DNA of 64,000 nucleotides from Herbaspirillum frisingense (GCA_009914615.1 WNDX01000002.1:18533-82532), one strand, 5' to 3'. Shown: positions 28,140 through 47,859, counted from the stretch's first letter. Notes: generated by a model from the sequence alone, not told the origin. Translations and numbers: made by a program.

Positions 28140-28742
28140 ATGAAAACCGATCCTGAATCGCACAAGCGCATGACCCAGCGCCATAAAGAGGGCTTCGAAA
28201 AGAAGAAGGCCGCGGCACAGAAAGAAAAGGGCCTGCTGATCGTCAACACCGGCACCGGCAAGGGCAAGTCCAGCGCCGCCTTCGGCATGGGCATGCGCAT
28301 CCTCGGCCAAGGCATGAAGCTGGGCGTGGTGCAGTTCATCAAGGGCGCGCTGTACAGCGCCGAACGCGATTTCCTCGGCGGCCACGCCCACTGCGATTTC
28401 CACGTGGTGGGCGAGGGCTACACCTGGGATACCCAGGACCGCGACGCCGACATGCGCACCGCCGCTCGCGGCTGGGCCGAGGCGGTGCGCATGATCAACG
28501 ACCCGAGCTACGACATGGTGATCCTGGACGAGCTCAACATCGTGCTGAAGTACCAGTACCTGGATCTGGAGGAAGTGCTGCGCGTCTTCTCCGGCCGTCG
28601 CGAGATGCTGCACATCGTGGTCACCGGGCGCCATGCGCCGGAGGCGCTGATCGCGCAGGCCGATCTGGTCAGCGAGGTGCGTCCGCTCAAGCATCCCTAT
28701 AAAGAACAAGGCGTGAAAGCGCAGAAAGGCGTGGAATTCTGA
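28140..28742 (+). CDS. cobO: Cob(I)yrinic acid a,c-diamide adenosyltransferase
   Basis: NTGTGKGKSSAAFG, VQFIKG, LDELN, VTGRHA and KHPY...AQKGVEF motifs. Confidence 0.96.
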   Translation: MKTDPESHKRMTQRHKEGFEKKKAAAQKEKGLLIVNTGTGKGKSSAAFGMGMRILGQGMKLGVVQFIKGALYSAERDFLGGHAHCDFHVVGEGYTWDTQDRDADMRTAARGWAEAVRMINDPSYDMVILDELNIVLKYQYLDLEEVLRVFSGRREMLHIVVTGRHAPEALIAQADLVSEVRPLKHPYKEQGVKAQKGVEF

Positions 28743-30076
28743 TGGAAGCGAGCGAGTATCGTTGTCCGGCGCTCTTCATTTCGGCGCCCGCCTCGGGCCA
28801 CGGCAAGACCACCATCACGGCGGCGCTGGCGCGCTTGTACCGCCGCGACGGCAAGACGGTGCGGGTCTTCAAGACCGGCCCCGATTTCCTGGACCCGCTG
28901 GTGCTGGAGCAGGCTTCCGGCCACCCGGTGGTCAACCTCGATCTGTGGCTGGGCGGCGAAGACCATTGCCGCCGCCAGGTGGCGCTGGCCGCGCGCGAAG
29001 CCGACGTGGTGCTGGTCGAAGGCGTAATGGGTCTGTATGACGGCGAACCGAGCAGCGCCGACCTGGCGCAGTTGCTGGGCATTCCGGTGGTGGCGGTGAT
29101 CAATGCGCGCGGCATGGGCCAGACGGTCGGCGCGCTGGCCCAGGGCCTGATCGCCTATCGTCCCGAACTGCGCTTCGCCGGCGTGCTGGCCAATGGCGTG
29201 GCCAGCCCGCGCCATGCGCAGATGCTGCGCCAGGGGCTGCAGAACGCCAGACCCACCGTGCCGCTCTTGACCGGCTTGCAGCGCGACATGCAGTTCGCGC
29301 TGCCCGAGCGTCACCTGGGCCTGGTGGCCGCGCCCGAGATCGCCGACCTGGACGCCCGCCTGGACGCGGTCGCCGACCGCATGGCCAGCACCTCGCTGGC
29401 CAAGTTGCCGGAGCCGGTGGACTTCGGCGCGCCGCCGCCGGAGCGCGAGTTTCCCCGCCTGCTGGAAGGCAAGACCATCGCCGTGGCGCGCGACCTGGCG
29501 TTCTCCTTCATCTACACCGCCAACCTCGACCTGCTGCAACGCATGGGCGCGCAGCTAGCCTTCTTCTCGCCGCTGGCCGACGACGCGCTGCCCCCCTGCG
29601 ATGCGGTGTGGCTGCCGGGCGGCTATCCCGAGCTGTATTTGGAGACGCTGCAAGCCTCGGCCCGCACCCAGGCCGGCCTGTGCGCGCACGCCGACGCCGG
29701 CAAGCCGCTGTATGCGGAATGCGGCGGCATGCTCTACCTGCTGGAAACCATCGTCGATCAGGAAGGCCAGAGCGGCCGCATGTGCGGAGTGCTGCCGGGC
29801 CAGGCCACGGTGCAGCAGCGCCTGCAAGGGCTGGGCTATCAGACGCTGTCGCTGAACCTGCCGGGCGCCTTCGGCGAACACTTGCGCTGCCACACCTTCC
29901 ATTACTCGCGCGCGGTGGTCGGCGCGCAATTCATGGCGCGCGGCGAGCGGCTCTTCGATTCTTCCGAAGGCGAGGTGGTCTATCGTCGCAACAAGGTGAC
30001 GGCCAGCTACCTGCACGCCTACTTCCGTTCCGCGCCGCGTACCGTGGCCGCCCTGTTCGGAGGCGCCAACGCATGA
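28742..30076 (+). CDS. cobB: Cobyrinate a,c-diamide synthase
   Basis: ASGHGKTT, FKTGPDFLDP, VEGVMGLYDG, PGGYPEL and YAECGG motifs. Confidence 0.95.
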   Translation: MEASEYRCPALFISAPASGHGKTTITAALARLYRRDGKTVRVFKTGPDFLDPLVLEQASGHPVVNLDLWLGGEDHCRRQVALAAREADVVLVEGVMGLYDGEPSSADLAQLLGIPVVAVINARGMGQTVGALAQGLIAYRPELRFAGVLANGVASPRHAQMLRQGLQNARPTVPLLTGLQRDMQFALPERHLGLVAAPEIADLDARLDAVADRMASTSLAKLPEPVDFGAPPPEREFPRLLEGKTIAVARDLAFSFIYTANLDLLQRMGAQLAFFSPLADDALPPCDAVWLPGGYPELYLETLQASARTQAGLCAHADAGKPLYAECGGMLYLLETIVDQEGQSGRMCGVLPGQATVQQRLQGLGYQTLSLNLPGAFGEHLRCHTFHYSRAVVGAQFMARGERLFDSSEGEVVYRRNKVTASYLHAYFRSAPRTVAALFGGANA

Positions 30077-30744
30077 GTCAGGCGCAGCCGCATCGCTATG
30101 CGCAGGCCGAGATCGACGCGCTCTACCGCGCCATCCGCGAGCGGCGCGACATGCGCCATTTCCTGCCGGACGCGGTCGATCCGGCGCTGCTGGAACGCTT
30201 GCTGCAGGCCGCGCATCACGCGCCCAGCGTGGGTTTCATGCAGCCCTGGCGCTTCATCCGCATCCGCGATGCGCAACTGCGCGCCGCCATCCATGCGCTG
30301 GTCGAGCAGGAACGCGTGACCACGGCACAGGCGCTGGGCGAGCGCGAGGATGAATTCATGAAACTCAAGGTCGAGGGCATCCGCGACTGCGGCGAGCTGC
30401 TGGTGGCGGCGCTGATGGACGGGCGCGAACCGCATGTGTTTGGCCGCCGCACCCTGCCGCAGATGGATCTGGCCTCATTGGCCTGCGCGCTGCAGAACAT
30501 GTGGCTGGCGGCGCGTGCCGAAGGCCTGGGGATGGGCTGGGTCTCGCTGTTCGAACCGGCGGCGCTGGCGCGCCTGCTGGGCATGCCCACCGGCGCCGAG
30601 CCGGTGGCGGTGGTGTGCCTGGGGCATGTCCCGGCCTTCTATGACAAGCCCATGCTGGAGCAGCAGAACTGGGCCGTGCGTCAGCCGCTGGAGCAACTGA
30701 TATTCGAAGACCGCTGGCCGGGCGCGGAAAGAGAGGACGCATGA
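30073..30744 (+). CDS. bluB: 5,6-dimethylbenzimidazole synthase
   Basis: YRAIRERRDMRHF, APSVGFMQPWRF and GLGMGWVS motifs. Confidence 0.93.
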   Translation: MSQAQPHRYAQAEIDALYRAIRERRDMRHFLPDAVDPALLERLLQAAHHAPSVGFMQPWRFIRIRDAQLRAAIHALVEQERVTTAQALGEREDEFMKLKVEGIRDCGELLVAALMDGREPHVFGRRTLPQMDLASLACALQNMWLAARAEGLGMGWVSLFEPAALARLLGMPTGAEPVAVVCLGHVPAFYDKPMLEQQNWAVRQPLEQLIFEDRWPGAEREDA

Positions 30745-31346
30745 ACACCCACCAGGCGCGACGCAGCCTGATCTTCGGCGGCGCCCGCTCGGGCAAGAGC
30801 GCGCATGCCGAGAAACTGGCGCTGGCGGCCTTGCAGGCGGGCGCCGATGAAATCGTTTATATCGCCACCGCCGGCCGCGCCGCCAGCGCGGGCGACGCCG
30901 AGATGAGCGAGCGCATCGCCCATCACCGCCAGCGGCGCGACGCCCTGGGCGGCCAGTGGCGCACCGTGGAAGAACCGCTGGCGCTGGGCCAGGCGCTGCG
31001 CGCCAACAGCCGCGCCGGCAACGTGGTGCTGGTCGATTGCCTGACGGTGTGGCTATCCAATCTGCTGTTCGCGGAAGGCCATGACTTTCCCGAATTGGGG
31101 CCGATCACGCCGCCGGCCACTTTCACGCTGCAGCGCGTGGATTTCCTGCGCGCCTTGCAGGACGCCAGGGGCCAGGTGATCCTGGTGTCGAACGAAGTGG
31201 GCATGGGCATCGTGCCGCAGGGCGCGGTGTCGCGCTGGTTCGTGGATGAGGCCGGGCGATTGAATCAATCGGTGGCGGCCATCTGCGAGCGCGTGCAATG
31301 GGTGGCGGCCGGTTTGCCATTGACGTTCAAGGATGCGGCGTGCTGA
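30741..31346 (+). CDS. cobU: Bifunctional adenosylcobinamide kinase / guanylyltransferase
   Basis: [24 protein letters not shown] and [11 protein letters not shown] motifs. Confidence 0.95.
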
Positions 31347-32287
31347 GCGGCTTGTCCTGGCCCGCGCTGGCGTTGCTGATGACGGCCGGCATCGTGCTGG
31401 ATCTGCTGCTGGGAGAGGCGCGGCGCTGGCATCCGCTGGTAGGCTTCGGCCATCTCGCCAAGCGCATCGAAGGCGCGCTCAATCATGCTCCGGCGCTGCG
31501 CCTGCGCGGCGTGCTGGCGTGGATGCTGGCGGTGCTGCCCGGCGTGGCGCTGACGGCCTGGATCATCCATCTGGCGCCTTGGTGGCTGGCCGGCCTGCTG
31601 CATGCGGTGTTGCTGTATGTCTGCATCGGCCTGCGCAGCCTGCGCGACCACACCTTGCCGATCGCGCGCGCGCTGGCGCAGGGTGACCTGCCGGCCGCGC
31701 GCGTGTTGACTTCGTACATCGTCAGCCGCGATACGCGGCAGGCCGGCGAGGCCGATCTGGCCAAGGCCGGCGTCGAGTCGCTGCTGGAGAACGGCAACGA
31801 CGCGGTGTTCGGCACGCTGTTCTGGTTCCTGGTGGCCGGCGGCCCGGGCGCGGTGCTGTTTCGCCTGGCCAATACCCTGGATGCGATGTGGGGCTATCGC
31901 AATGACCGCTTCCTGCATTTCGGCTGGGCGGCGGCGCGCATCGACGATGCGCTGAACTGGATCCCGGCGCGCCTGACCGCGTGGTCCTATGCCTGGCTGG
32001 GCGATCGCGAACGTGCGCTGGCCTGCTGGAAAGAACAGGCGCCGGCCTGGAGCAGTCCCAACGCCGGCCCGGTGATGGCGGCCGGCGCCGGTGCGCTGGG
32101 CGTGCTGCTGGGCGGTGCGGCGGTGTACGACGGCGAAGTCGAGCAGCGCCCGCCGCTGGGCCGCGGCCAACCCGCGCAGGGCGCCGACATCGTGCGCGCC
32201 TGGCGGCTGGTGGCGATGAGCACGGCGCTGTGGCTGGCCGCCGTCTGCGCGCTGGCGCTGGTGTCGTTGGGAGTCTTCCATGCTTGA
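31340..32287 (+). CDS. cbiB: Adenosylcobinamide-phosphate synthase
   Basis: [28 protein letters not shown] and SPNAG motifs; GTG start inferred. Confidence 0.93.
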
Positions 32288-33296
32288 ACACGGTGGCAAT
32301 CTCAACGACGCCGCGCGGCACTACGGTCGCCCGCGCAGCGAGTGGCTAGACCTGTCCACCGGCATCAATCCGCTTCCTTATCCGGCGCCCGCGCCGGCGC
32401 CGGACGCCTGGCACCGCCTGCCGGAACCCTCGGACGACCTGGCGCGCGCCGCCTGCGCCTACTACGGCGCAGCGCGCATGCTGCCGGTGGCGGGCACGCA
32501 AGCGGCGATCCAGGCCTTGCCGCAGTTACGCCTGCGCCGCGACGGCCGTGCTGCGCGTGTGGTGGTGGCCGCGCCCATCTATGCCGAGCACGCGCATTGC
32601 TGGACGCGCGCCGGCCATGCGGTGCGCGAGGTGCCCTACGAGGCGCTGGACGCGGCCGTGCAGGGCGACTGCGAGGTGCTGGTGCTGTGCAATCCCAACA
32701 ATCCCACCGGCGCCATGGTCGCGCCGGAGCAGTTGCTGCGCTGGGCGCGGCAATTGGGCGCGCGCGGCGGCTGGCTGGTGGTCGATGAAGCCTTCGGCGA
32801 CACCGTGCGCGAATACAGCGTGGCCGCGCATGCCGGCGACGCCGGGGCGGATGGTTTGATCGTGCTGCGTTCCGTGGGCAAGTTCTTCGGCCTGGCCGGT
32901 TTGCGCCTGGGCTTCGTCGCCGCCGGGCCGACGCTGCTCGATGAGCTTGCCGACTGGCTGGGGCCGTGGACCGTCAGCGGCCCGGCGCAGCAGGTCGGTA
33001 TTGCCGCCTTGCGCGATGAACCATGGCAGCGCGCCACGCTGCAGCGCCTGCTGGCCGACGGTGAACGCCTGCGCGCCTTGCTGGCGCGGCAGGGCATGAC
33101 GACATCCGGCAGCGCGCTGTTCCAGTGGTGGCCGGAGCCGCGCGCGCAGGCCTTCCATGCAGCGATGGCGCGCCAGGGCGTGTGGGTACGCCTGTTCACG
33201 TGCGGCGCCGGCGGCATCCGCATCGGCCTGCCGCCTGACGAGGACGGCTGGCGCCGGCTGGCGCTAGCCTTGCAGGCATGGAGCGCGCATGGCTGA
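32280..33296 (+). CDS. cobD: Threonine-phosphate decarboxylase (PLP-dependent)
   Basis: [27 protein letters not shown] and [15 protein letters not shown] motifs. Confidence 0.92.
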
Positions 33297-34755
33297 TTTT
33301 CCCTTCCATACCCTGATGATCCAGGGCACCACCTCGGACGCCGGCAAGAGCACGCTGGGCGCGGCGCTGTGCCGCCTGCTCCGGCGCGACGGCATCGCGG
33401 TGGCGCCGTTCAAGCCGCAGAACATGGCGTTGAACAGCGCGGTCACCGCCGATGGCGGCGAGATCGGCCGGGCCCAGGCCTTGCAGGCCCAGGCCGCCGG
33501 CATCGCGCCGCATACCGACATGAACCCGGTGCTGCTCAAGCCCTCCAGCGATACCGGCGCCCAGGTCATCGTGCACGGCAAGGTGCGCGCCGACATGAAC
33601 GCGCGCGACTATCACCGCTACAAGACCGAGGCCATGCAAGCCGTGCTGGCTTCCTATGGCCGCCTGCGCGCGCAATATCGGAGCATCATCGTCGAGGGCG
33701 CCGGCAGCCCGGCCGAGATCAACCTGCGGGCGCGCGACATCGCCAACATGGGCTTTGCCGAGGCGGTCGATTGCCCGGTCATCATCGTGGCCGACATCGA
33801 CCGCGGCGGCGTGTTCGCGCATTTGACCGGCACGCTGGATTGTCTCTCCGAGAGCGAGCGCGCGCGCGTGATCGGTTTCGTCATCAACCGTTTCCGCGGC
33901 GACATCAGCCTGTTGCAGCCCGGCCTGGACTGGCTGGAACAACGCACCGGCAAGCCGGTGCTGGCGGTGCTGCCTTACCTGCACGGCCTGCACCTGGACG
34001 CGGAAGACGCCATCGCCGCGACGCAGAGCGCGCGCGGCGAGTTCCGCGTGGTGGTGCCGGTGCTGCCGCGCATCAGCAACCATACCGACTTCGATGCGCT
34101 GCGCGCGCATCCCGATGTCGATCTGCGCTTCGTCGGGCCGGGCCAGCCGATTCCACCGGCCGACCTGATCATCCTGCCCGGCAGCAAGAACACCCGCGGC
34201 GACATGGCCTGGCTGGCGCAGCACGGCTGGCCCGATGCCATCCGCAAGCATCTGCGCTACGGCGGCAAGCTGATCGGCATCTGCGGCGGCTTCCAGATGC
34301 TGGGCGAGGGCGTGGACGACCCGCACGGCGTGGAAGGCGCGCCTGGCAGCAGCGAGGGATTGGGCCTGCTGGCCATGCGTACCGAGCTGACGCGTGACAA
34401 GCGCCTGCTGCAAGTGGCCGGCCATTGCCATTTCGGCGTCGGCGCCGCCGCGGTCAGCGGTTATGAGATTCACATGGGCGTCTCCGCCGGCGCGGCGCTG
34501 GAGCGTCCCGCCTTCATCATCGAGGGGCGCGGCGAAGGCGCGCAATCCGCGGACGGGCAGATACTGGGCAGTTACCTGCACGGCATGTTCGACACCCCGC
34601 AGGCGTTTGCCGCGCTGCTCGCGTGGGCGGGGCTGGACGGGGTGGAGGCGGTGGATCTGGACGCCTTGCGCGAGGCCAGCCTGGAGCGGCTGGCGGATGC
34701 GACGCAACCCTTGTATGAGGCCTTGAAGAAGGTGGAGTCGCGCTTCGGCGGATAA
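33289..34755 (+). CDS. cobQ: Cobyric acid synthase
   Basis: [37 protein letters not shown] and [10 protein letters not shown] motifs. Confidence 0.97.
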
Positions 34756-34801: not shown

Positions 34802-34999
34802 TCAGTTGAGCGCTTCCTTGGCCGCTTCTTCCGGTGTAAGACCGTCGTAGAACATGTCGGTGAACCATTCCACCTGTTCCTCGATGTGCTCCTGGGCCTG
34901 GTCCAGCGTGGCGCCGCCCTTGACCAGGAACTGTTCGACCTCGGTGCACCATTGAATCAGCGCTTCGGTCTCCGGATCCAGCTTTTCTTTCTTGGGCAT
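34802..34999 (-). CDS. Small acidic hypothetical protein (65 aa)
   Basis: RBS AAGGA; MPKKEKLDPETEALIQWCTEVEQFL...GLTPEEAAKEALN. Confidence 0.7.
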   Translation of the reverse strand: MPKKEKLDPETEALIQWCTEVEQFLVKGGATLDQAQEHIEEQVEWFTDMFYDGLTPEEAAKEALN

Positions 35000-35088: not shown

Positions 35089-36049
35089 CTATTGCAGCAA
35101 TCCCCCGGCGCCCGCCGCGGCCACGCTGCTGGCCAGCACCGCCGCGGCCGAGCGGGTTTCCACGCCCAGTTTCACGAAGATGTGTTCCAGGTGCTTGTTG
35201 ACCGTGCGCGGGCTCATGCCGAGGATGTCGGCGATATCGCGGTTGGTCTTGCCCTTGCCCAGCCAGAGCAGCACGTCGCTTTCGCGCGGCGTCAGGCGCA
35301 GGCCTTCGAAGGAGGGCGGGACGGCCGCATCGTCGCCGGCCGCCGGCGCGGTAACCGCCGTCTGTTTTTCTTCCAGCAACAGCGTGATGCCATGTCCTTG
35401 CCCGGGGCCGGACATGGCGATGCTCAATTCGCAACCGTCGCGCGCCACCACCAGCGGCGCCACATCGCCGCCGTCGCCCTGGCGCCGGCGCACCAGGCTT
35501 TCGTTGAGCCAGGCTTGCAGCGGCGCCGGCAATTTGGCGGCGCCGGACGCACTGCCCGCGCCGAAATATTTCTCCAGCCACAAGGATGCCTTGCTGGTCT
35601 GCCACAGCGGCAGGCCGTGACCGCCGAACACGATCACGGCGTGCGCCGCATGCTCCAGCACGCCGCGCGTCTGCGACATCATGCGCGCCGTGCGGATGTG
35701 GGCGCCCACGCGCGCCACCACTTCTTGCGGGCGGATCGGCTTGGTGACGTAGTCGATGCCGCCGACCTCGAAGCCGCGCACCACGTGCTCGGTTTCGGAC
35801 AGGCCGGTCATGAACACCACCGGCACATGGTTGACGCTCTTGATCAGCTTGATGCGGCGGCAGGTCTCGAAGCCATCGATGCCGGGCATCATGGCATCCA
35901 GCAGGATCAGGTCGGGCGTGATGTAGTCCAGCCGCTCCAGCGCGCTCATGCCGTCGGTGGCGACCAGCACGATGTGGCCGCTTTCATCGAGGGAATCGGA
36001 CAGCATGGCCAGGTTGTCGGGCATGTCGTCCACGATGAGGACCACATGC

Positions 36050-36072
<23 letters not shown>
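35089..36072 (-). CDS. Response regulator (REC domain, linker, LuxR/NarL HTH)
   Basis: LIVDD, LLDAMMPGIDG and TKPI; C-terminal LTPRESDVL...KTNRDIADILGMSPRTVNKHL. Confidence 0.93.
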
Positions 36073-39460
<3,388 letters not shown>

Positions 39461-39617
39461 ATTTTGCTCGCGTTCGGGTGGGCGGCCGGCGGCCGTGCAC
39501 GGGGCGGCTTCACGCCGTCGCGCGGGATCCTGCATGCGGCGCGACAACATGGCCGGCCGGGCACGGCCGTCGGCGCTCAATGAAAGCAATTTTCAAACCA
39601 ATCCGCGGGCGTGGGCA

Positions 39618-39633
39618 TACGTCAAATGACGTA
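39618..39633. promoter_or_regulatory. 7-2-7 palindromic operator, copy 1
   Basis: TACGTCA-AA-TGACGTA, a perfect inverted repeat. Confidence 0.7.
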
Positions 39634-39791
39634 GGTCGCGCGGCCGTTTTTGCCGCTTTTCACCAAAACGCGGCACGCCCGAAGCCGACGGATTCCTGAG
39701 CGGCGGGAGACGCGGCCGGGCCACGCACCAATACCATGCCGCGCGCGGGCGAAAGCTGTGCATCGGCGGAACGCCCGCCTGCGCGGGGTTT

Positions 39792-39807
39792 TACGTCAAA
39801 CGACGTA
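39792..39807. promoter_or_regulatory. 7-2-7 palindromic operator, copy 2
   Basis: TACGTCA-AA-CGACGTA (one mismatch to copy 1), abutting a putative -35 box. Confidence 0.7.
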
Positions 39808-39836
39808 TTGTTGCGCCGCACCGCCAATCCTATTCT
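39808..39836 (+). promoter_or_regulatory. Putative sigma70 promoter of urtA
   Basis: TTGTTG-N17-TATTCT. Confidence 0.45.
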
Positions 39837-40004
39837 TCGTCCCAGAACGAACGGCGGGGAGGTCCCGGCGGGCATGAGGGGAAAGACTCGCATGCACGCA
39901 TGCCGCGGCCCGGCGCCTCCCGGCGTCGTTCGTTCCGGCCCCCGGGCCGGCAACCGCCACGATCGCCTCCAATAACGTCCAACAATGCCCGAAAGGAGTA
40001 CCGC

Positions 40005-41261
40005 ATGTCGCACCGTTCCTCGTCCCGCCCTCCCATATCCCGGCGGCGCAAGATCCTGATGGGCCTGGCCGCCGGTGCGGCAGCCGCGGCGCTTCCCGGC
40101 CTGGCCATGGCGCAGCAGTTCCCGACCGCCAAGGTCAACACCACCAAGCTGGCCATCACCGACACCGAAGTCACCGTCGGCCAGTTGCACTCGGCCACCG
40201 GCACCATGGCCATCAGCGAAACCGGTTCGATCCAGGCCGAGCGCCTGGCCATCGACCAGATCAACTCCATGGGCGGCATCCTCGGCCGCAAGATCAAGAT
40301 CATCCAGGAAGACGGCGCCAGCGACTGGCCCACCTTCGCCGAAAAGGCCAAGAAGCTGCTGGAAAACGACCGCGTGGCGGCCGTCTTCGGCTGCTGGACC
40401 TCGGCTTCGCGCAAGGCGGTGCTGCCGGTGTTCGAGAAGGACAACGGCTTGCTGTACTACCCGACCTTCTATGAAGGCCTGGAACAATCCAAGAACGTGT
40501 TCTACACGGGCCAGGAGGCGACGCAACAGGTGTTGGCAGGTCTGAACTGGGTGGCCAAGGAAAAGAAGGCCAAGACCTTCTTCCTGGTCGGTTCGGACTA
40601 CATCTGGCCGCGCACCTCCAACAAGATCGCCCGCAAGCACATCGAAAACGTGCTCAAGGGTTCGGTGGTGGGCGAGGAGTACTACCCGCTGGGCAACACC
40701 CAGTTCGGTTCGCTGATCAACAAGATCAAGCTGAAGAAGCCCGACGTGATCTTCGCCGACGTGGTCGGCGGCAGCAACGTGGCTTTCTACAAGCAGTTGA
40801 AGGCGGCCGGCGTCACCGCCAAGACCCAGAATCTGCTGACCATCTCGGTGACCGAGGATGAAATGCTGGGCATCGGCGGCGAGAACGTGGAAGGCTTCTT
40901 CGCCTCGATGAAGTATTTCCAGAGCCTGGACAACGCCAACAACAAGAAATTCGTGGCCGAATTCAAGGCCAAGTTCGGCGCCAATTCGGTGATCGGCGAC
41001 GTCACCCAGGCGGCTTACCTCGGCCCCTGGCTGTGGAAGGCGGCGGTCGAGAAGGCCGGCAGCTTCGACGTTGACAAGGTAGTCGCCGCTTCGCCCGGCA
41101 TCGAGCTGAAGACCGCGCCGGAAGGCTACGTCAAGGTGCACGAGAACCACCACCTGTGGAGCAAGACCCGCATCGGCGAGGCGCAGAAGGACGGCCAGTT
41201 CAAGGTCATCTACGAGTCCGATCTGATCGAGCCGAATCCTTTCCCCAAGGGCTATCAATAA
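40005..41261 (+). CDS. urtA: Urea/short-chain amide ABC substrate-binding protein (UrtA/FmdD family), probable Tat signal
   Basis: SRRRKIL signal; HSATGTMAISE, EDGASDWPTFA, GCWTSASRK, YPTFYEG and GSDYIWPR motifs. Confidence 0.93.
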   Translation: MSHRSSSRPPISRRRKILMGLAAGAAAAALPGLAMAQQFPTAKVNTTKLAITDTEVTVGQLHSATGTMAISETGSIQAERLAIDQINSMGGILGRKIKIIQEDGASDWPTFAEKAKKLLENDRVAAVFGCWTSASRKAVLPVFEKDNGLLYYPTFYEGLEQSKNVFYTGQEATQQVLAGLNWVAKEKKAKTFFLVGSDYIWPRTSNKIARKHIENVLKGSVVGEEYYPLGNTQFGSLINKIKLKKPDVIFADVVGGSNVAFYKQLKAAGVTAKTQNLLTISVTEDEMLGIGGENVEGFFASMKYFQSLDNANNKKFVAEFKAKFGANSVIGDVTQAAYLGPWLWKAAVEKAGSFDVDKVVAASPGIELKTAPEGYVKVHENHHLWSKTRIGEAQKDGQFKVIYESDLIEPNPFPKGYQ

Positions 41262-41342
41262 GCCTGTACGGCCACGGCGTCGTCAAGTCTTGCCGGTGGC
41301 GTTCTTTCTCCCGGCCTGTGCGGCCGGGCGACGAACGGCACC

Positions 41343-41368
41343 GGATCCCGGTCAGCGCCGGGATGACG
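41343..41368 (-). repeat. CGTC-type REP-like palindrome
   Basis: Minus strand CGTCATCCCGGCGCTGACCGGGATCC. Confidence 0.6.
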
Positions 41369-41507
41369 GAGATGGCGCCGCGGCCGTCGATCCGAGCAGC
41401 AAAGCGGCGGCGCCTGTTGTGACATGCGGGCGCCGTCGCCCCACGGCTTGCCGGCGCGCGCGTCGGCGTTTTCGCTCCATCCTTCATCGCCCACGGCGGG
41501 AGTCAAC

Positions 41508-42425
41508 ATGGTTTCTCTATCCGAATTCGGCGCCATCTTCGCCATGCAGGGCTTCAACGGCCTGTCGGTGTTCTGCGTGCTGCTGCTCATGGCGCTGGGG
41601 CTGGCCATCATTTTCGGGCAGATGGGCGTGATCAACATGGCGCATGGCGAGTTCCTCACCATCGGCGCCTACATCACTTATCTGCTGTCGCATCTGACCA
41701 CCACCTATGCACCCAGCCTGCAGCCGTTCTACTTCTTCGGCGCGGTGGTGTTGTCCTTCCTGGTGGCCTACGGGATCGGCTACCTGACCGAACTGCTGCT
41801 GATCAGCCGCCTCTACAAGCGCCCGCTGGACACGCTGCTGGCCACCTGGGGCCTGTCGCTGGCGATGCAGCAGACGTTCCGCTCCATCTTCGGCGCCAAG
41901 GAAGTCAGCGCCACCTTGCCGGACTGGCTGCTGGGCTCGTTCAAGCCCACCGATGCCATCGACATTCCCATCAACGGCCTGTTCATGATGGGCCTGACGG
42001 TGCTGCTGACCGGCGCCATCTTCGTGCTGCTGTTCCGTTCGCGCTGGGGGCTGCAGGTACGCGCCACCATGCAGAACCGGGTGATGAGCGGCGCGGTCGG
42101 CATCAATACCCGCAAGGTCGATCGCACCACCTTCGTCCTGGGCTGCGGCGTGGCGGGCGTGGCCGGGGCGGCGTTCACCACCATCGGCTCGACCGGTCCC
42201 ACCAGCGGCTCGCTGTACATCGTCGATACCTTCCTGGTGGTGGTGTTCGGCGGCGCCCAGAGCCTGATCGGCACCATCGCCTCGGCGTTCTCGATCGCCC
42301 AGACCCAGTCCACCGCCGAATTCTTCCTGACCGGATCGATGGCCAAGGTGCTCACGCTGTCGGCGGTGATCCTGATCCTGATGCTGCGTCCGCAGGGCCT
42401 GTTCTCGGCCAAGGTGCGCAAGTGA
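41508..42425 (+). CDS. urtB: Urea/amide ABC permease
   Basis: GLAIIFGQMGVINMAHGEF, RPLDTLLATWG and LRPQGLF motifs. Confidence 0.93.
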   Translation: MVSLSEFGAIFAMQGFNGLSVFCVLLLMALGLAIIFGQMGVINMAHGEFLTIGAYITYLLSHLTTTYAPSLQPFYFFGAVVLSFLVAYGIGYLTELLLISRLYKRPLDTLLATWGLSLAMQQTFRSIFGAKEVSATLPDWLLGSFKPTDAIDIPINGLFMMGLTVLLTGAIFVLLFRSRWGLQVRATMQNRVMSGAVGINTRKVDRTTFVLGCGVAGVAGAAFTTIGSTGPTSGSLYIVDTFLVVVFGGAQSLIGTIASAFSIAQTQSTAEFFLTGSMAKVLTLSAVILILMLRPQGLFSAKVRK

Positions 42426-42468
42426 TGCGGGCCGGCCTTTCCCGACTCTCCCTTCGCGAGGTTCCACG

Positions 42469-43674
42469 ATGAATGCAGCATATGAGAAATTACTGGGCGG
42501 CCGCTCCGGCCTGCTGGGACTGCTGGTGCTGGGCGCGCTGCTGCTGGTGGTGTTCCCGCTGACGATGGACATGTTCCGCCTCAACCTGGTCGGCAAGTAC
42601 CTGTCCTACGCCTTCGTCGCCGTCGGCCTGGTGCTGTGCTGGGGCTACGGCGGCATTCTCAGCCTGGGGCAGGGCGTGTTCTTCGGCCTGGGCGGCTATT
42701 GCATGGCGATGTTCCTGAAGCTGGAAGCGTCCGACCCGATCAGCACCAAGATCCAGTCCACGCCGGGCATTCCCGACTTCATGGACTGGAACCAGATCAC
42801 CGCCTTGCCGGCCATGTGGCAACCCTTCCACAGCTTCGGCTTCACCGTGCTGGCGGTGCTGGCGGTGCCGACGCTGTTGGCCTTCCTGATCGGCCTGGCG
42901 ATGTTCAAGCGGCGCGTGGGCGACGTCTATTTCTCCATCGTCACGCAGGCCATCGCGGCGATCCTGTCGATCCTGATCATCGGCCAGCAAGGCCTGACTG
43001 GCGGCGTCAACGGCATCACCGACCTGAAGACCCTGATGGGCTGGGACATCCGCACCGACAGCGCCAAGCTGATCCTGTACTTCGTCAACGCCGGCCTGCT
43101 GTTTGCCTGCATCCTGTTCGGCCGCTACGTGCTGAGTTCCAAGCTGGGCCGGCTGCTGGTGGCGATGCGCGACAAGGAAGAACGGGTGCGCTTCTCCGGC
43201 TACGACGTGGCCAGCTTCAAGGTGTTCGTGTTCTGCGCGGCGGCCATGTTCTCGGCCATCGGCGGCGCCATGTTCACGCTGCAGGTCGGCTTCATGTCGC
43301 CATCCTTCGTCGGCATCGTGCCCTCCATCGAGATGGTCATCTACGCCGCCGTCGGAGGCCGCATGTCGCTGCTGGGCGCGGTCTACGGCACGCTGCTGGT
43401 GAACTTCGGCAAGACCTATTTTTCCGAGACCTTCCCTGAACTGTGGCTGTTCCTGATGGGCGGCCTGTTCATCGCGGTGGTGATGTACTTCCCCAACGGC
43501 CTGGCAGGTCTCTATCAAAGCCAGGGCAAGCGCCTGATGGCGCGCCTGCGCCGTCAGCCGGCGACGATGGCCGCACCTGAGATTGCCCAGACCAAGGCGC
43601 CGGCGCGGCCGGCCGCTCCCGACACCGCCCGCGACGGCATCGAACCCGGCGCCACCCTGGAGGCCAGCAAATGA
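42469..43674 (+). CDS. urtC: Urea/amide ABC permease
   Basis: WGYGGILSLGQGVFFGLGGY, RFSGY and SIEMVI motifs. Confidence 0.93.
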   Translation: MNAAYEKLLGGRSGLLGLLVLGALLLVVFPLTMDMFRLNLVGKYLSYAFVAVGLVLCWGYGGILSLGQGVFFGLGGYCMAMFLKLEASDPISTKIQSTPGIPDFMDWNQITALPAMWQPFHSFGFTVLAVLAVPTLLAFLIGLAMFKRRVGDVYFSIVTQAIAAILSILIIGQQGLTGGVNGITDLKTLMGWDIRTDSAKLILYFVNAGLLFACILFGRYVLSSKLGRLLVAMRDKEERVRFSGYDVASFKVFVFCAAAMFSAIGGAMFTLQVGFMSPSFVGIVPSIEMVIYAAVGGRMSLLGAVYGTLLVNFGKTYFSETFPELWLFLMGGLFIAVVMYFPNGLAGLYQSQGKRLMARLRRQPATMAAPEIAQTKAPARPAAPDTARDGIEPGATLEASK

Positions 43675-44438
43675 GCGACGCAGCAATCGGATTCGAATCG
43701 GATGCCCATCCGGTCCTGGCGATCGAAGACCTGACGGTGTCCTTCGATGGCTTCAAGGCGGTGGACAAGCTCAACCTGTACGTCCAGCGCAATGAAGTAC
43801 GCGTGGTGATCGGCCCCAACGGCGCCGGCAAGACCACCGTGCTGGACCTGATCTGCGGCAAGACGCGCGCCACCTCGGGCAGCATCCGCTTCAACGACCA
43901 CGAGCTCACCAGGATGAGCGAGCACGCCATCGTGCGGGCCGGGGTGGGGCGCAAGTTCCAGACGCCGTCGATCTACGAAAACCTCAGTGTGTTCGAGAAC
44001 CTGGAAATGTCCTTCCGGCGCGGCCGCAAGGTGTTCGGCGCGCTGACCTTCAAGCGCTCGCCCGACGTGGTGGCGCGGGTCGAGGCGGTGGCGGCGGAGA
44101 TCTTCCTCGACGCCCAGCTGCATACCCAGGCCGATCTGCTGTCGCACGGCCAGAAGCAGTGGCTGGAGATCGGCATGCTGCTGATGCAGGAGCCCGAGCT
44201 GCTGATGCTGGACGAGCCGGTGGCCGGCATGAGCGTCTCCGAGCGCGAGAAGACCGCCCAACTGCTGGGGCGCATCAGCCAGGGGCGTTCGGTGGTGGTG
44301 ATCGAGCACGACATGGATTTCGTCAAGAGCATCGCGCACAAGGTGACCGTGCTGCACCAGGGCAAGATCCTGGCCGAAGGCAGCATGGAGAAGGTGCAGG
44401 CCGATCCCAGGGTGATCGACGTGTACCTGGGCCATTGA
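43671..44438 (+). CDS. urtD: Urea/amide ABC ATPase
   Basis: GPNGAGKTT, RKFQTP, LSHGQKQWLEI and LDEPVAG motifs. Confidence 0.94.
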   Translation: MSDAAIGFESDAHPVLAIEDLTVSFDGFKAVDKLNLYVQRNEVRVVIGPNGAGKTTVLDLICGKTRATSGSIRFNDHELTRMSEHAIVRAGVGRKFQTPSIYENLSVFENLEMSFRRGRKVFGALTFKRSPDVVARVEAVAAEIFLDAQLHTQADLLSHGQKQWLEIGMLLMQEPELLMLDEPVAGMSVSEREKTAQLLGRISQGRSVVVIEHDMDFVKSIAHKVTVLHQGKILAEGSMEKVQADPRVIDVYLGH

Positions 44439-44465
44439 CCACTCATCGATATTGCGGAGCCACTC

Positions 44466-45155
44466 ATGTTCAAGGTATCCCAACTCGCCTCCGGCTACGG
44501 TCAGAGCGCGGTCATCCACGACATCAACCTGTCGGTGGCCAAGGAAGAAATCGTCGCCGTCATGGGGCGCAACGGCATGGGCAAGACCACGCTGTTCAAG
44601 ACCCTGATGGGCATCCTGCCGCTGCGCGAGGGCAGCATCAGTATCGACGGCGTCGAGCTGGGCGGGCTGGAAAGCCATCAGCGCGTGGCGCGCGGCGTGG
44701 CCTACGTGCCGCAGGGTCGCATGATCTTTCCCGGCATGACGGTGCTGGAAAACATCCAGACCGGGCTCGGCCCGCAGGCGCGCGGCAAGGTGCCCGACGA
44801 GCTGTATGCGCTGTTCCCGGTGCTGTACGACATGCGCGGGCGCAAGGGCGGCAATCTGTCGGGCGGCCAGCAGCAGCAACTGGCGATCGCCCGCGCGCTG
44901 GCCACCAATCCGCGCGTGCTGCTGCTGGATGAGCCGACCGAGGGCATCCAGCCTTCCATCATCAAGGACATCGCGCGCAGCCTGAAGGAAATCCGCAAGA
45001 TCCGCCAGCTCACCATCATCGTGTCGGAGCAGGTGCTCAGCTTCACGCTGGAGATCGCCGACCGTTTCCTGGTGATCGACAAGGGTCGCTTCGTGTACGA
45101 AGACACGCGCGACCACGTCGATGCGCCCACCATCAGCAAGTACCTGTCCGTCTAG
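44466..45155 (+). CDS. urtE: Urea/amide ABC ATPase
   Basis: GRNGMGKTT, LSGGQQQQLAI and DEPTEGIQPS motifs. Confidence 0.94.
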   Translation: MFKVSQLASGYGQSAVIHDINLSVAKEEIVAVMGRNGMGKTTLFKTLMGILPLREGSISIDGVELGGLESHQRVARGVAYVPQGRMIFPGMTVLENIQTGLGPQARGKVPDELYALFPVLYDMRGRKGGNLSGGQQQQLAIARALATNPRVLLLDEPTEGIQPSIIKDIARSLKEIRKIRQLTIIVSEQVLSFTLEIADRFLVIDKGRFVYEDTRDHVDAPTISKYLSV

Positions 45156-45182
45156 CGGCGGCATTCGCAAAGGAGCCACATC

Positions 45183-46205
45183 ATGAGGCATGGAGACATA
45201 TCGAGCAGCAAGGACGCGGTCGGCGTGGCCGTGGTCAATTACAAGATGCCGCGCCTGCACACCCGCGGCGAGGTGCTGGACAACGCACGCCGGATCGCCG
45301 CCATGCTGGTCGGCATGAAGCAGGGGCTGCCGGGACTGGACCTGGTGGTGTTTCCTGAATATTCCACCCACGGCATCATGTATGACGAAGCCGAGATGCT
45401 TGAGACCGCCGCCACGGTGCCGGGCGACGAGACCCGCATCTTCTCGGAAGCCTGCCGCATCGCCGGCGTGTGGGGCGTGTTCTCGCTGACCGGCGAGCGC
45501 CACGAGGAGCATCCGCGCAAGGCGCCGTACAACACCCTGATCCTGATCGACGACCAGGGCGAGATCGTGCAGAAGTACCGCAAGATCATGCCGTGGACGC
45601 CGATCGAAGGCTGGTATCCGGGCGACCAGACCTACGTCTGCGACGGCCCCAAGGGCCTGAAGATCAGCCTGATCATCTGCGACGACGGCAACTACCCCGA
45701 GATCTGGCGCGACTGCGCCATGAAGGGGGCCGAGCTGGTGGTGCGCTGCCAGGGTTACATGTACCCGGCCAAGGGGCAGCAGATCCTGGTGGCCAAGGCG
45801 ATGGCGTGGATGAACAACGTCTATGTGGCGGTGGCCAACGCGGCCGGCTTCGACGGCGTCTATTCGTACTTCGGCCACTCGGCCATCGTCGGCTTCGACG
45901 GCCGCACGCTGGGCGAATGCGGCACCGAGGAAATGGGCATCCAGTACGCCGAACTCTCGGTGGGCGCGATCCGCGATGCGCGCCGCAACTGGCAATCGCA
46001 GAACCACCTCTTCAAGCTGCTGCACCGTGGTTACACCGGCAAGATCAATTCGGGCGAATCGCCGGCCGGCGTGGCCGATTGTCCCTTCGATTTCTACAAG
46101 ACCTGGGTCACCGATCCGCAGGGCGCGCGCGCCCGGGTGGAGGCGATCACCCGCAAGAGCGCCGGCACCCCGGAATGCCCGGTGCCGGGCATTCCCACGG
46201 AATAA
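45183..46205 (+). CDS. amiE: Aliphatic amidase (nitrilase superfamily)
   Basis: [27 protein letters not shown]-terminus; catalytic E (FPEYS), K (YRKIMPW) and C (ICDDGNYPE). Confidence 0.95.
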
Positions 46206-46308
46206 AACGCAACCGGGCGAAACCACGCCGAATCAAGCCGAATCAAGCGCGGCCGCGCACGACACGCTACAGGCAGCACCACCACGCACCCTACCTAAAG
46301 GAGATCGC

Positions 46309-47487
46309 ATGCAACACTTCAAGATCAAGCCCGGCCAACCGCTGGCCGAACAGCCGGAACTGGGGCACAACCGCTGGCATCCGGATCTGCCGTTCCTGTC
46401 CTCGGTGAAGCCGGGCGAATCGATCCTGATCGAATCGCTGGACTTCCTGGATGCCCAGATCAAGGACACCGACGACGTCTCCGACGTCAAGAACGTCGAT
46501 CTGACGCGCGCCCATCCGCTGACCGGCCCGTTCCACGTCGAAGGCGCAGAACCCGGCGACCTGCTGGTGATCGACCTGCTGGACATCAAACCGGTAACGC
46601 CGGTGGGATTCTCCGGCGTGTTCGCCAAGGAAAACGGCGGCGGCTTCCTGGCCGACTACTTCCCCGATGCCGACAAGGCGATCTGGGACCTCAAGGGGCT
46701 GTACGCAACCTCGCGCCACATCCCCGGCGTGCGTATCGCCGGCCTGACGCACCCCGGCCTGATGGGCTGCCTGCCGTCGCATGACCTGCTGGCCGAGTGG
46801 AACCGCCGCGAGGCGCCGCTGGCGGCCAAGGGCCTGGCCAAGCCGCCCGATCCGAGCACCGCCGTGCTGCGCGGCCTGACCGGCGCCAAGTTCGACGAGA
46901 TGGCCAAGACCGCGGCGCGCACCGTGCCGCCGCGCGAGCATGGCGGCAACACCGACATCAAGGATCTGTCGGCCGGCACGCGCATCTTCTTCCCGGTGTA
47001 CGTCAAGGGCGCCGGTTTCTCGATGGGCGACCTGCACTTCTCGCAGGGCGACGGCGAGATCGGCTTCTGCGGCGCCATCGAGATGGACGGCGTGAGCCAC
47101 GTCGGCTTCGACCTGATCAAGGGCGGCATGGCCAAGTACAACATCACCTCGCCGATCTTCATGCCCAGCATCGTCAAGCCGCACTACGAGCAGTGGCTGA
47201 CCTTCGAAGGCATCAGCGTCGAGAACGGCGTCAATTACTATCTGGACGCGACGGTGGCGTACCGCCAGGCTTGCCTGAAGGCGATCGATTACCTGACGCA
47301 CTTCGGCTACACCGGCAGCCAGGCCTACATGCTGCTGACCGCGGCGCCGGTGGAAGGGCGCATCGGCGGCATCGTCGATATCCCGAACTGCGCCTGCACG
47401 GTGGCCTTGCCGACCTCGATCTTCGACCAGGACATCACGCCCAAGGGCATGCTGAACGACAAGTCCTACTGGGGCCGCAAGCCCTAG
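46309..47487 (+). CDS. fmdA: Acetamidase/formamidase (FmdA family)
   Basis: HNRWHPD, HPLTGPF, PPREHGGNTD, GDLHFSQGDGE and YLDATVAY motifs; RBS AAGGAG. Confidence 0.92.
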   Translation: MQHFKIKPGQPLAEQPELGHNRWHPDLPFLSSVKPGESILIESLDFLDAQIKDTDDVSDVKNVDLTRAHPLTGPFHVEGAEPGDLLVIDLLDIKPVTPVGFSGVFAKENGGGFLADYFPDADKAIWDLKGLYATSRHIPGVRIAGLTHPGLMGCLPSHDLLAEWNRREAPLAAKGLAKPPDPSTAVLRGLTGAKFDEMAKTAARTVPPREHGGNTDIKDLSAGTRIFFPVYVKGAGFSMGDLHFSQGDGEIGFCGAIEMDGVSHVGFDLIKGGMAKYNITSPIFMPSIVKPHYEQWLTFEGISVENGVNYYLDATVAYRQACLKAIDYLTHFGYTGSQAYMLLTAAPVEGRIGGIVDIPNCACTVALPTSIFDQDITPKGMLNDKSYWGRKP

Positions 47488-47562
47488 CGACAGTCGGCTG
47501 GCAAGGACGCGGAGCCGGGCGACGCCGGCTCCGCCGCGCGAGACCATTTACCGGAGCAAGAC

Positions 47563-47859
47563 ATGCCCTTATACGATATCCGTTGCAGCCACTGCGAAGG
47601 CATCTTCGAGAAATTCCTGTCGATGCAGGCGTTGCAGGGCGCGGTCGCTTGCCCTTACTGCAAGCAGGACACCGCCGCCGCCCCCATGCTGACCGGCGGG
47701 CGCGTCGGCCTGCAGGTGAAGGAGCGCTGGCGCCCGCGCAACGGCGCCGAGCAACTGGCCGGGCAGGGCGCCGCCGGCCCCGGCGCCCATGCGGGAGCGG
47801 GGCGCAGTAGCGTGCTGCACAACTGCAAGGGACATAGCTGCAGCATCTGCGCGACCTGA
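47563..47859 (+). CDS. fmdB: FmdB-family zinc-ribbon protein
   Basis: MPLYDIRCSHC...CPYC; extra C-terminal HNCKGHSCSIC. Confidence 0.85.
   Translation: MPLYDIRCSHCEGIFEKFLSMQALQGAVACPYCKQDTAAAPMLTGGRVGLQVKERWRPRNGAEQLAGQGAAGPGAHAGAGRSSVLHNCKGHSCSICAT

Follow-up and report, generated by a model that had tools for sequence, protein, structure and literature searches.

The 545-bp intergenic region separating a hybrid sensor histidine kinase gene from urtA in Herbaspirillum frisingense contains two copies of a 7-2-7 inverted repeat, which are probably operators of the adjacent LuxR-type regulator, activating urtA; we put the probability of this reading at roughly 0.8. The window (the whole stretch of 64,000 nucleotides that was analysed) was studied together with its counterparts in other genomes, about 150 related DNA stretches being compared overall. 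In the mechanism proposed here, the kinase would probably sense a short-chain amide or urea via its permease-like membrane domain and activate the regulator, whose dimer would bind each 7-2-7 site. Each site would be centred about 43.5 bp upstream of the start of a weak sigma-70 promoter, so that the bound regulator would act there in the class II manner and bring in RNA polymerase. Copy 2 would switch on urtABCDE-amiE-fmdA-fmdB (amide/urea uptake, aliphatic amidase and formamidase), and copy 1, on the other strand, would switch on the kinase-regulator operon, giving positive feedback; the two copies would act independently, with no DNA loop. The comparisons described below show that the sites exist, are conserved, keep a fixed geometry, accompany both the regulator family and urea/amide genes, and covary with the recognition helix; that the regulator binds them, whether it activates or represses, where transcription starts, what induces the system and how phosphate is passed on are inferred from these findings.

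Table 1 Features of the window around the two inverted repeats (positions counted from the first nucleotide of the window).
Feature	Position	Strand	Description
Candidate operator copy 1	39618-39633	.	TACGTCAAATGACGTA, TACGTCA-AA-TGACGTA, 7-2-7 inverted repeat
Candidate operator copy 2	39792-39807	.	TACGTCAAACGACGTA, TACGTCA-AA-CGACGTA, 1 mismatch
Predicted urtA promoter	39808-39836	+	-35 TTGTTG 39808-39813, 17-nt spacer, -10 TATTCT 39831-39836
Predicted kinase-regulator promoter	39589-39617	-	-35 region TGCCCA 39617-39612, -10-like GAAAAT 39594-39589
Response regulator	35089-36072	-	327 aa; receiver, PAS-like insert of about 100 aa, GerE/LuxR-type HTH
Hybrid sensor histidine kinase	36050-39460	-	HisKA, HATPase, receiver (Pfam)
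Predicted target operon	40005-47859	+	urtABCDE-amiE-fmdA-fmdB
urtA	40005-41261	+	TIGR03407, 534.9 bits
urtB	about 41508-42425	+	
urtC	42469-43674	+	
urtD	43671-44438	+	
urtE	44466-45155	+	
amiE, aliphatic amidase	45183-46205	+	NF009802, 703 bits
fmdA, formamidase	46255-47487	+	NF045496, 558 bits
fmdB, zinc-ribbon gene	47563-47859	+	

The two 7-nt arms of copy 1, described in the earlier note as a perfect 16-bp palindrome, are perfectly complementary and form a perfect 7-2-7 repeat, but the middle AA is not self-complementary and the element is not a strict palindrome. The second copy with its single mismatch, and the 174 bp between the starts of both copies, agree with the earlier description. 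A search of the 64-kb window with TACGTCANNTGACGTA, allowing up to two mismatches, retrieved only two matches, copies 1 and 2, compared to 0.02 expected by chance (dinucleotide-preserving shuffles; none of the 100 shuffles reached two). Their PWM scores (matrix described below) were 31.2 bits for copy 1 and 28.2 bits for copy 2; the PWM scan revealed no third site in the 64-kb window and none inside the urtA-fmdB operon. All that speaks for chance palindromes, or copies of a dispersed repeat, devoid of a regulatory role is that short palindromes are, in general, frequent between genes. Chance conflicts with the expectation of 0.02, a dispersed repeat conflicts with the lack of any further copy in the 64-kb window, and both conflict with the conservation of the motif across classes at a fixed promoter position. 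Judged by the comparative data, this explanation is already contradicted, and its probability is negligible.

The neighbouring genes that had been assumed from the DNA (regulator, kinase and urt/amide operon) were corroborated by Pfam and NCBIfam matches (Table 1). AAGGAG provides urtA with a strong ribosome-binding site, and the gene encodes a Tat-type signal; the regulator and kinase genes overlap by 23 nt. The start of the kinase gene was assigned by homology to GTG 39460, rather than to that of a longer ORF; its relatives begin with MTNPATQRIVKV. The regulator (Pfam Response_reg 1.5e-26, GerE 3.6e-17) has its closest homologues in Herbaspirillum (76-83% identity), and its recognition helix is SPRTVNKHLEHIF. 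Its receiver is nearest to PleD- and OmpR-type receivers, and a fold search with its AF2 model (pLDDT 81.6, alignment of 67 homologues) gave full-length matches to StyR, FixJ and LiaR, with receiver domains dominating. Encoded next to the repeats and combining a receiver with a GerE HTH, the protein belongs to the GerE/LuxR type (NarL/FixJ class). The proposal of a NarL/LuxR-family regulator consequently stands for the GerE/LuxR-type part but not for orthology to NarL: the protein scored 71.9 bits against the NCBIfam NarL model, whose cut-off is 250, and it has an extra PAS-like domain, and its identification as NarL was rejected. This extra domain is an insert between the receiver and GerE (approximately residues 141-238; 35359-35650, minus strand) with a beta2-alpha2-beta3 order; it appears PAS-like by secondary-structure order alone, and the fold search with the regulator model established no ligand or fold match for it. 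The insert could constitute a second input of the regulator.

Beyond the regulator gene, 89 nt downstream of it, there is a 65-aa ORF (MPKKEKLDPETEALIQWCTEVEQFLVKG..., 34802-34999, minus strand) whose family was not recognised; its counterpart in H. rubrisubalbicans (L082:11074-11271) shows about 95% identity, and other relatives have small genes in this place. A cobalamin biosynthesis/salvage cluster (28742-34755; cobyrinic acid a,c-diamide synthase, BluB-like nitroreductase, CobU, CobD, CobC and CobQ) lies directly downstream on the regulator side, and cobalamin genes are the same neighbours in H. rubrisubalbicans.

Conservation in close relatives was analysed in eight Oxalobacteraceae loci (L081-L088), fetched through homologues of the regulator. 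The mean column identity of their intergenic regions was only 49%. Copy 2, together with TTG..GC and TA.TCT, was kept in all eight, its columns being invariant bar one R position, and copy 1 was a perfect repeat in six (L081-L086, which thus hold both copies) and absent from L087 and L088. Since the motif also occurs across three proteobacterial classes (below), it is indeed conserved upstream of orthologous operons, the point on which the earlier note had staked its interpretation. Further invariant islands of the Oxalobacteraceae alignment were the block AAGCAATTTTC..CCA beside copy 1 (the kinase-side -10 region) and the ribosome-binding site. In a strain approximately 95% identical there were many intergenic substitutions, including one at 39634, adjoining copy 1; among those listed, none fell inside either copy. 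The locus of Herbaspirillum sp. RTI4 (L085:4313-6618) shows a DUF6402 gene plus a small ORF inserted between copy 1 and the kinase gene, and also carries repeated PAAR/DUF6402 cassettes.

The regulator-family alignment was scanned over one genome per species. Full-length orthologues (38-53% identity) were encoded at 54 of the loci obtained, which came from alpha-, beta- and gammaproteobacteria; at 26 others the scan had picked up receiver proteins that were unrelated and mostly cyanobacterial, and these loci (0.43 Mb) served as controls. The consensus of the symmetrised PWM, constructed from the motif matches, was aTACGTCAwwTGACGTAt, a dyad of two half-sites with high information at TACG and CGTA, as in operators of the GerE type. 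Of the 62 orthologous loci (1.10 Mb), 33 contained sites scoring at least 20 bits, 44 in all, a co-occurrence that is partly built in, the 62 loci having been chosen via the regulator, and that concerns genomes encoding the regulator, being silent on the urea/amide operons of the others; the 0.43 Mb of control loci gave no site at this score. About half of the orthologous loci had no site of at least 20 bits (some contigs were truncated and some had variant motifs), and some of these loci may have their targets elsewhere.

The sites were located in the kinase-urtA intergenic region or before urtA, porin-urtA, fmdA (Pseudomonas), ureD, hupE/ureJ and genes for TonB receptors; in L015 the site was ahead of the kinase gene alone. 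As the targets vary by taxon, the kinase-regulator pair is the constant partner of the motif, and all of the targets are plausibly concerned with urea/amide nitrogen. The earlier note had proposed activation of the amide operon: amide genes do form part of the regulon, but it is not restricted to them, other taxa adding urea transport and urease genes. The system is present in Herbaspirillum, Variovorax, Pseudomonas, Rhizobium, Bradyrhizobium and many others. Metagenome contigs were also scanned for exact motif matches, and 80 loci were kept, 17 of which had the match just upstream of orthologues of urtA, porin-urtA, fmdA or the kinase gene, a placement far above the expectation for random 14-base matches. 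The kinase or the regulator was adjacent in at least 14 of these 17; the rest of the 80, among which G/C spacers and low-GC contigs are frequent, have the look of unrelated sites or of chance matches. In several taxa, urtA is preceded by an ORF of 369-411 aa that has the operator motif upstream and whose product begins with a signal peptide and ends in an aromatic residue (L006:18552-19661, L089:994-2229 and L162:1998-3107); this ORF family had no Pfam match, and its members are probably outer-membrane porins for urea or amides.

The HTH regions encoded in the loci were aligned and set against the sites of the same loci. The helix SPRTVNKHLE was associated with TACGTCA-type half-sites (about 30 loci), and the clade with helix SPATVKKHLE (L002, L003, L021, L030) with TACGCCA..TGGCGTA. 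Proteins with H (L017), D (L022/L025) or T (L027) at the N position had C at motif position 5; the exception was L028, a T variant with T-type half-sites. Recognition-helix residues therefore covary with half-site bases, as expected for a GerE-type operator, in few independent lineages and with the L028 exception. Such covariation is expected if the regulator reads the site, and would not be produced by another factor. In the alignment, the variable N of TVNKH falls at Lys188 of NarL, a base-contacting residue, and it is predicted to be the specificity-determining residue.

This covariation is relevant to a further explanation, in which the motif would be the site of a different transcription factor of urea/amide nitrogen and the kinase-regulator pair would lie nearby by linkage only. 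The comparison loci were indeed picked through the regulator, and three of the 17 metagenome sites show neither kinase nor regulator within their short contig; against this, half-site position 5 changes with the recognition-helix residue, L015 has its site before the kinase gene alone, the targets vary while the kinase-regulator neighbour is constant, and a dyad with a 2-bp gap suits a dimer with a GerE-type HTH. We consider a different factor quite unlikely. The assignment of both copies to the adjacent regulator, as activator of the operon, was already put forward in the earlier note, and conservation, promoter geometry and helix/half-site covariation all argue for it.

The position of the sites relative to promoters was analysed by taking, for each gene, the nearest site and reading the flank that faced the gene (50 flanks). 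The hexamer NANNNT started exactly 23 nt past the motif in 36 of the 50 gene-facing flanks (72%), compared to about 3% at other offsets (0-8% at nearly all of them). These -10-like hexamers include TATTCT, TAATCT, TACTCT, TAGTAT, TAAAGT and GATAGT toward urtA, and GAAAAT, CAGACT and CATGAT toward the kinase gene. If the hexamer is set at -12 to -7, the site extends from about -51 to -36, its centre is at -43.5, and the next six bases are in the -35 position. In the window, the 23-nt spacing occurs on both sides (copy 2 toward urtA; copy 1 toward the kinase gene, minus strand). The starts predicted from the hexamers are at about 39843 (urtA, plus strand) and about 39582 (kinase, minus strand), both site centres would thereby lie at about -43.5, and the predicted kinase-side leader has about 120 nt ahead of the GTG. 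The fixed distance to the -10-like hexamer implies a class II position at a predicted start, and the sites, abutting the -35 region, would display the geometry of a class II activator. The sequence TTGTTG-N17-TATTCT does directly follow copy 2, as proposed, and the fixed 23-nt distance lends weight to the centre of about -43 that had been estimated for this copy relative to the predicted start. In public reads, the contigs of the approximately 95% identical strain were of DNA type, and RNA runs shared only about 10% of words.

The urtA promoter matches the sigma-70 consensus at 7 of 12 positions (3 of 6 in the -35), which is below the strict threshold, and a scan for the strict sigma-70 consensus brought neither promoter to threshold. 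Sub-threshold promoters of this kind fit activator-dependent promoters, as expected if an activator is needed. The regulator might instead bind and repress one or both promoters (negative autoregulation at copy 1, or an unphosphorylated form relieved by the inducer), since a protein bound at sites that reach the -35 region could equally block RNA polymerase, and the direction of regulation is not legible from sequence alone. Repressed promoters, however, are usually strong, and here the -35 matches at 3 of 6 positions and the strict scan found none; proven activators of the LuxR family, CrbR among them, have this -51 to -36 geometry; and the exact 23-nt phasing across distant taxa suggests contact between the protein and the polymerase, not mere occlusion. 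Repression is therefore an unlikely alternative to activation.

Copy 1 faces the kinase gene with the same geometry as copy 2 faces urtA, in agreement with the earlier suggestion that the kinase-regulator unit is autoregulated, and positive autoregulation via copy 1 is a reasonably likely consequence of this arrangement. It would not be universal, as copy 1 is missing from L087 and L088 though the -10 block is kept there. The two copies might also cooperate, with regulator dimers joined by a DNA loop and both divergent promoters working as one unit; one intergenic region of 545 bp holding two sites of predicted high affinity would be compatible with it, and tandem sites 22 bp apart in Pseudomonas hint at cooperativity there. 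The spacing of the copies in close relatives is nevertheless 144, 173, 174, 184, 194 or 299 bp, without maintenance of the helical phase; L087 and L088 have copy 2 only; L085 accommodates its two inserted genes between copy 1 and the kinase gene; and for each copy there is a separate -10 element, correctly spaced. Looping is thus very improbable, and independent action of the two operators is preferred. Some loci of Variovorax, Xenophilus and Pseudomonas (L011:6476, L013:6449, L026:6274, L051:7061, L052:7052 and L053:6980) have a single palindrome with NANNNT 23 nt away on both sides, and from this arrangement one operator may drive both divergent promoters in these genera. In Pseudomonas there is an extra, weaker tandem site 22 bp away, and another site upstream of fmdA.

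Other elements were searched for between and beyond the operators. Three blocks are conserved between the operators in the Herbaspirillum and Collimonas relatives only: TTTTCACCAAAACGCGGCAC (39649-39668), CGCACCAATACCATGCC (39724-39740) and GGGCGAAAGCTGTGCA (39747-39762). The first two have CACCAA.AC in common, with a loose likeness to NtrC half-sites. The third was considered as a sigma-54/NtrC promoter and found unsupported: it has 4 mismatches to TGGCAC-N5-TTGCA, and sigma-54 matches with up to 3 mismatches were at or below chance in the window (171 compared to 237 expected). A terminator-like hairpin at 39774-39787 was rejected (one found, 1.0 expected; not conserved). In the window and in Herbaspirillum, the urtA leader (39843-40004, about 160 nt) exceeds that of more distant relatives by about 100 nt, and is conserved only in its first bases (CAGAACGAA) and in the ribosome-binding site region (CGAAAGGAGTACCGC). 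A riboswitch or attenuator in this leader was rejected: the energy of its long hairpin (39845-39935) was no better than that of shuffles (z = -0.25), the leaders of relatives (45-176 nt) lack a consensus structure, and Rfam gave only noise.

The kinase consists of a multi-pass membrane domain of about 490 aa, a Cys-rich segment, two more membrane helices and the HisKA/HATPase/receiver part. The N-terminal membrane domain (37990-39460, minus strand) is 63-92% identical across genera. No Pfam match was obtained for residues 1-650 even at E = 10, and searches of PDB with the sequence and with a profile gave none for the membrane domain; relatives are labelled 'purine-cytosine permease-like' by JGI. 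A profile search with the membrane domain gave 1876 clusters; in these it either stands alone (about 550 aa) or is fused to a kinase, to GGDEF-EAL or to GAF. The AlphaFold model of this domain, from a 7-sequence alignment, had a pLDDT of 39.9 and was unusable. The domain may be an uncatalogued transporter-like sensor module. At the opposite end (36050-36330, minus strand) there is a helical tail of about 90 residues past the receiver; Pfam found no Hpt domain in the kinase or in this tail, and some members of the kinase family do have one (P0274).

The closest known analogue is CrbS/CrbR (MxtR/ErdR; acetate; ACTU motif), in which an SLC5-domain hybrid kinase works with a LuxR-family regulator, and activation by CrbR requires an inverted repeat, again imperfect, that occupies -52 to -36 and directly adjoins the RpoD promoter (PMC5715377). 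The present system likewise combines a LuxR-family regulator with a repeat predicted at about -51 to -36 and with a hybrid kinase whose membrane domain is large and transporter-like, but it has no SLC5/SSF or STAC match, an extra PAS-like domain, another motif and a predicted amide/urea regulon. It was not assigned to the SLC5/STAC kinases (CrbS/R, CbrA/B, RpuS/R), given the lack of Pfam matches at E = 10 and of PDB matches; the likeness would be one of working only (membrane-input hybrid kinase, LuxR-type regulator and -52/-36 repeat), not one of family membership.

NarL and NarP bind 7-2-7 inverted heptamers with the consensus TACYYMT. The present sites share with those of NarL the inverted heptamers spaced by 2 bp, the outer TAC...GTA and a GerE-type HTH dimer; TACGTCA, however, agrees with TACYYMT at 5 of 7 positions, the mismatches being G4 and A7, and does not belong to that consensus. 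Also unlike NarL, the regulator has a PleD/OmpR-type receiver and a third domain, and the regulon is unrelated to nitrate. LuxR, activated by acyl-homoserine lactone, activates from -42.5 (class II) at the 20-bp lux box. Here too a dyad abuts the -35 of a weak promoter and the DNA-binding domain is of LuxR type, but the sequence is another one and the regulator carries a phosphorylatable receiver domain.

The amidase operon of Pseudomonas aeruginosa is controlled by antitermination: AmiR, the antiterminator, binds RNA and is held by AmiC, which senses the ligand (PMC13209695). As in that system, an aliphatic amidase induced by short-chain amides would be accompanied by an ABC transporter; in contrast to it, control is here proposed at transcription initiation. 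The operon has no amiC, amiR or ANTAR gene, and no significant leader structure or terminator was found, which sets it apart from AmiC/AmiR antitermination. One genome paper notes that a two-component system of the LuxR family adjoins urtABCDE-fmdA (PMC13296017), and another notes the gene cluster (PMC13209695); apart from such mentions, the literature search found no study of the present kinase-regulator system or its motif.

Although the mechanism is conventional, the value of the finding would lie in the motif, the regulon and the specificity residue of a widespread system whose sensor domain is uncatalogued. The major nitrogen sources of soil, rhizosphere and host-associated habitats include urea and short-chain amides, and the known control of their use is exerted by NtrC, UreR, AmtR or AmiC/AmiR. 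The present analysis provides a testable operator and PWM for a different system, and predicts a regulon of urt, porin, fmdA, amiE, ure, hupE and TonB receptor genes; the predicted promoter, compact and inducible by amides or urea, would be usable as a genetic tool. More tentatively, with chances just short of even, the motif may be the regulon mark of a widespread proteobacterial system for sensing urea and short-chain amides, the kinase sensing through the permease-like domain of about 490 aa and the PAS-like domain of the regulator being a possible second input. If true, this would represent a new transporter-like ('transceptor') input module for bacterial signalling, and a substrate-specific control layer over urease, urea transport and amidases, beside NtrC, UreR and AmiR.
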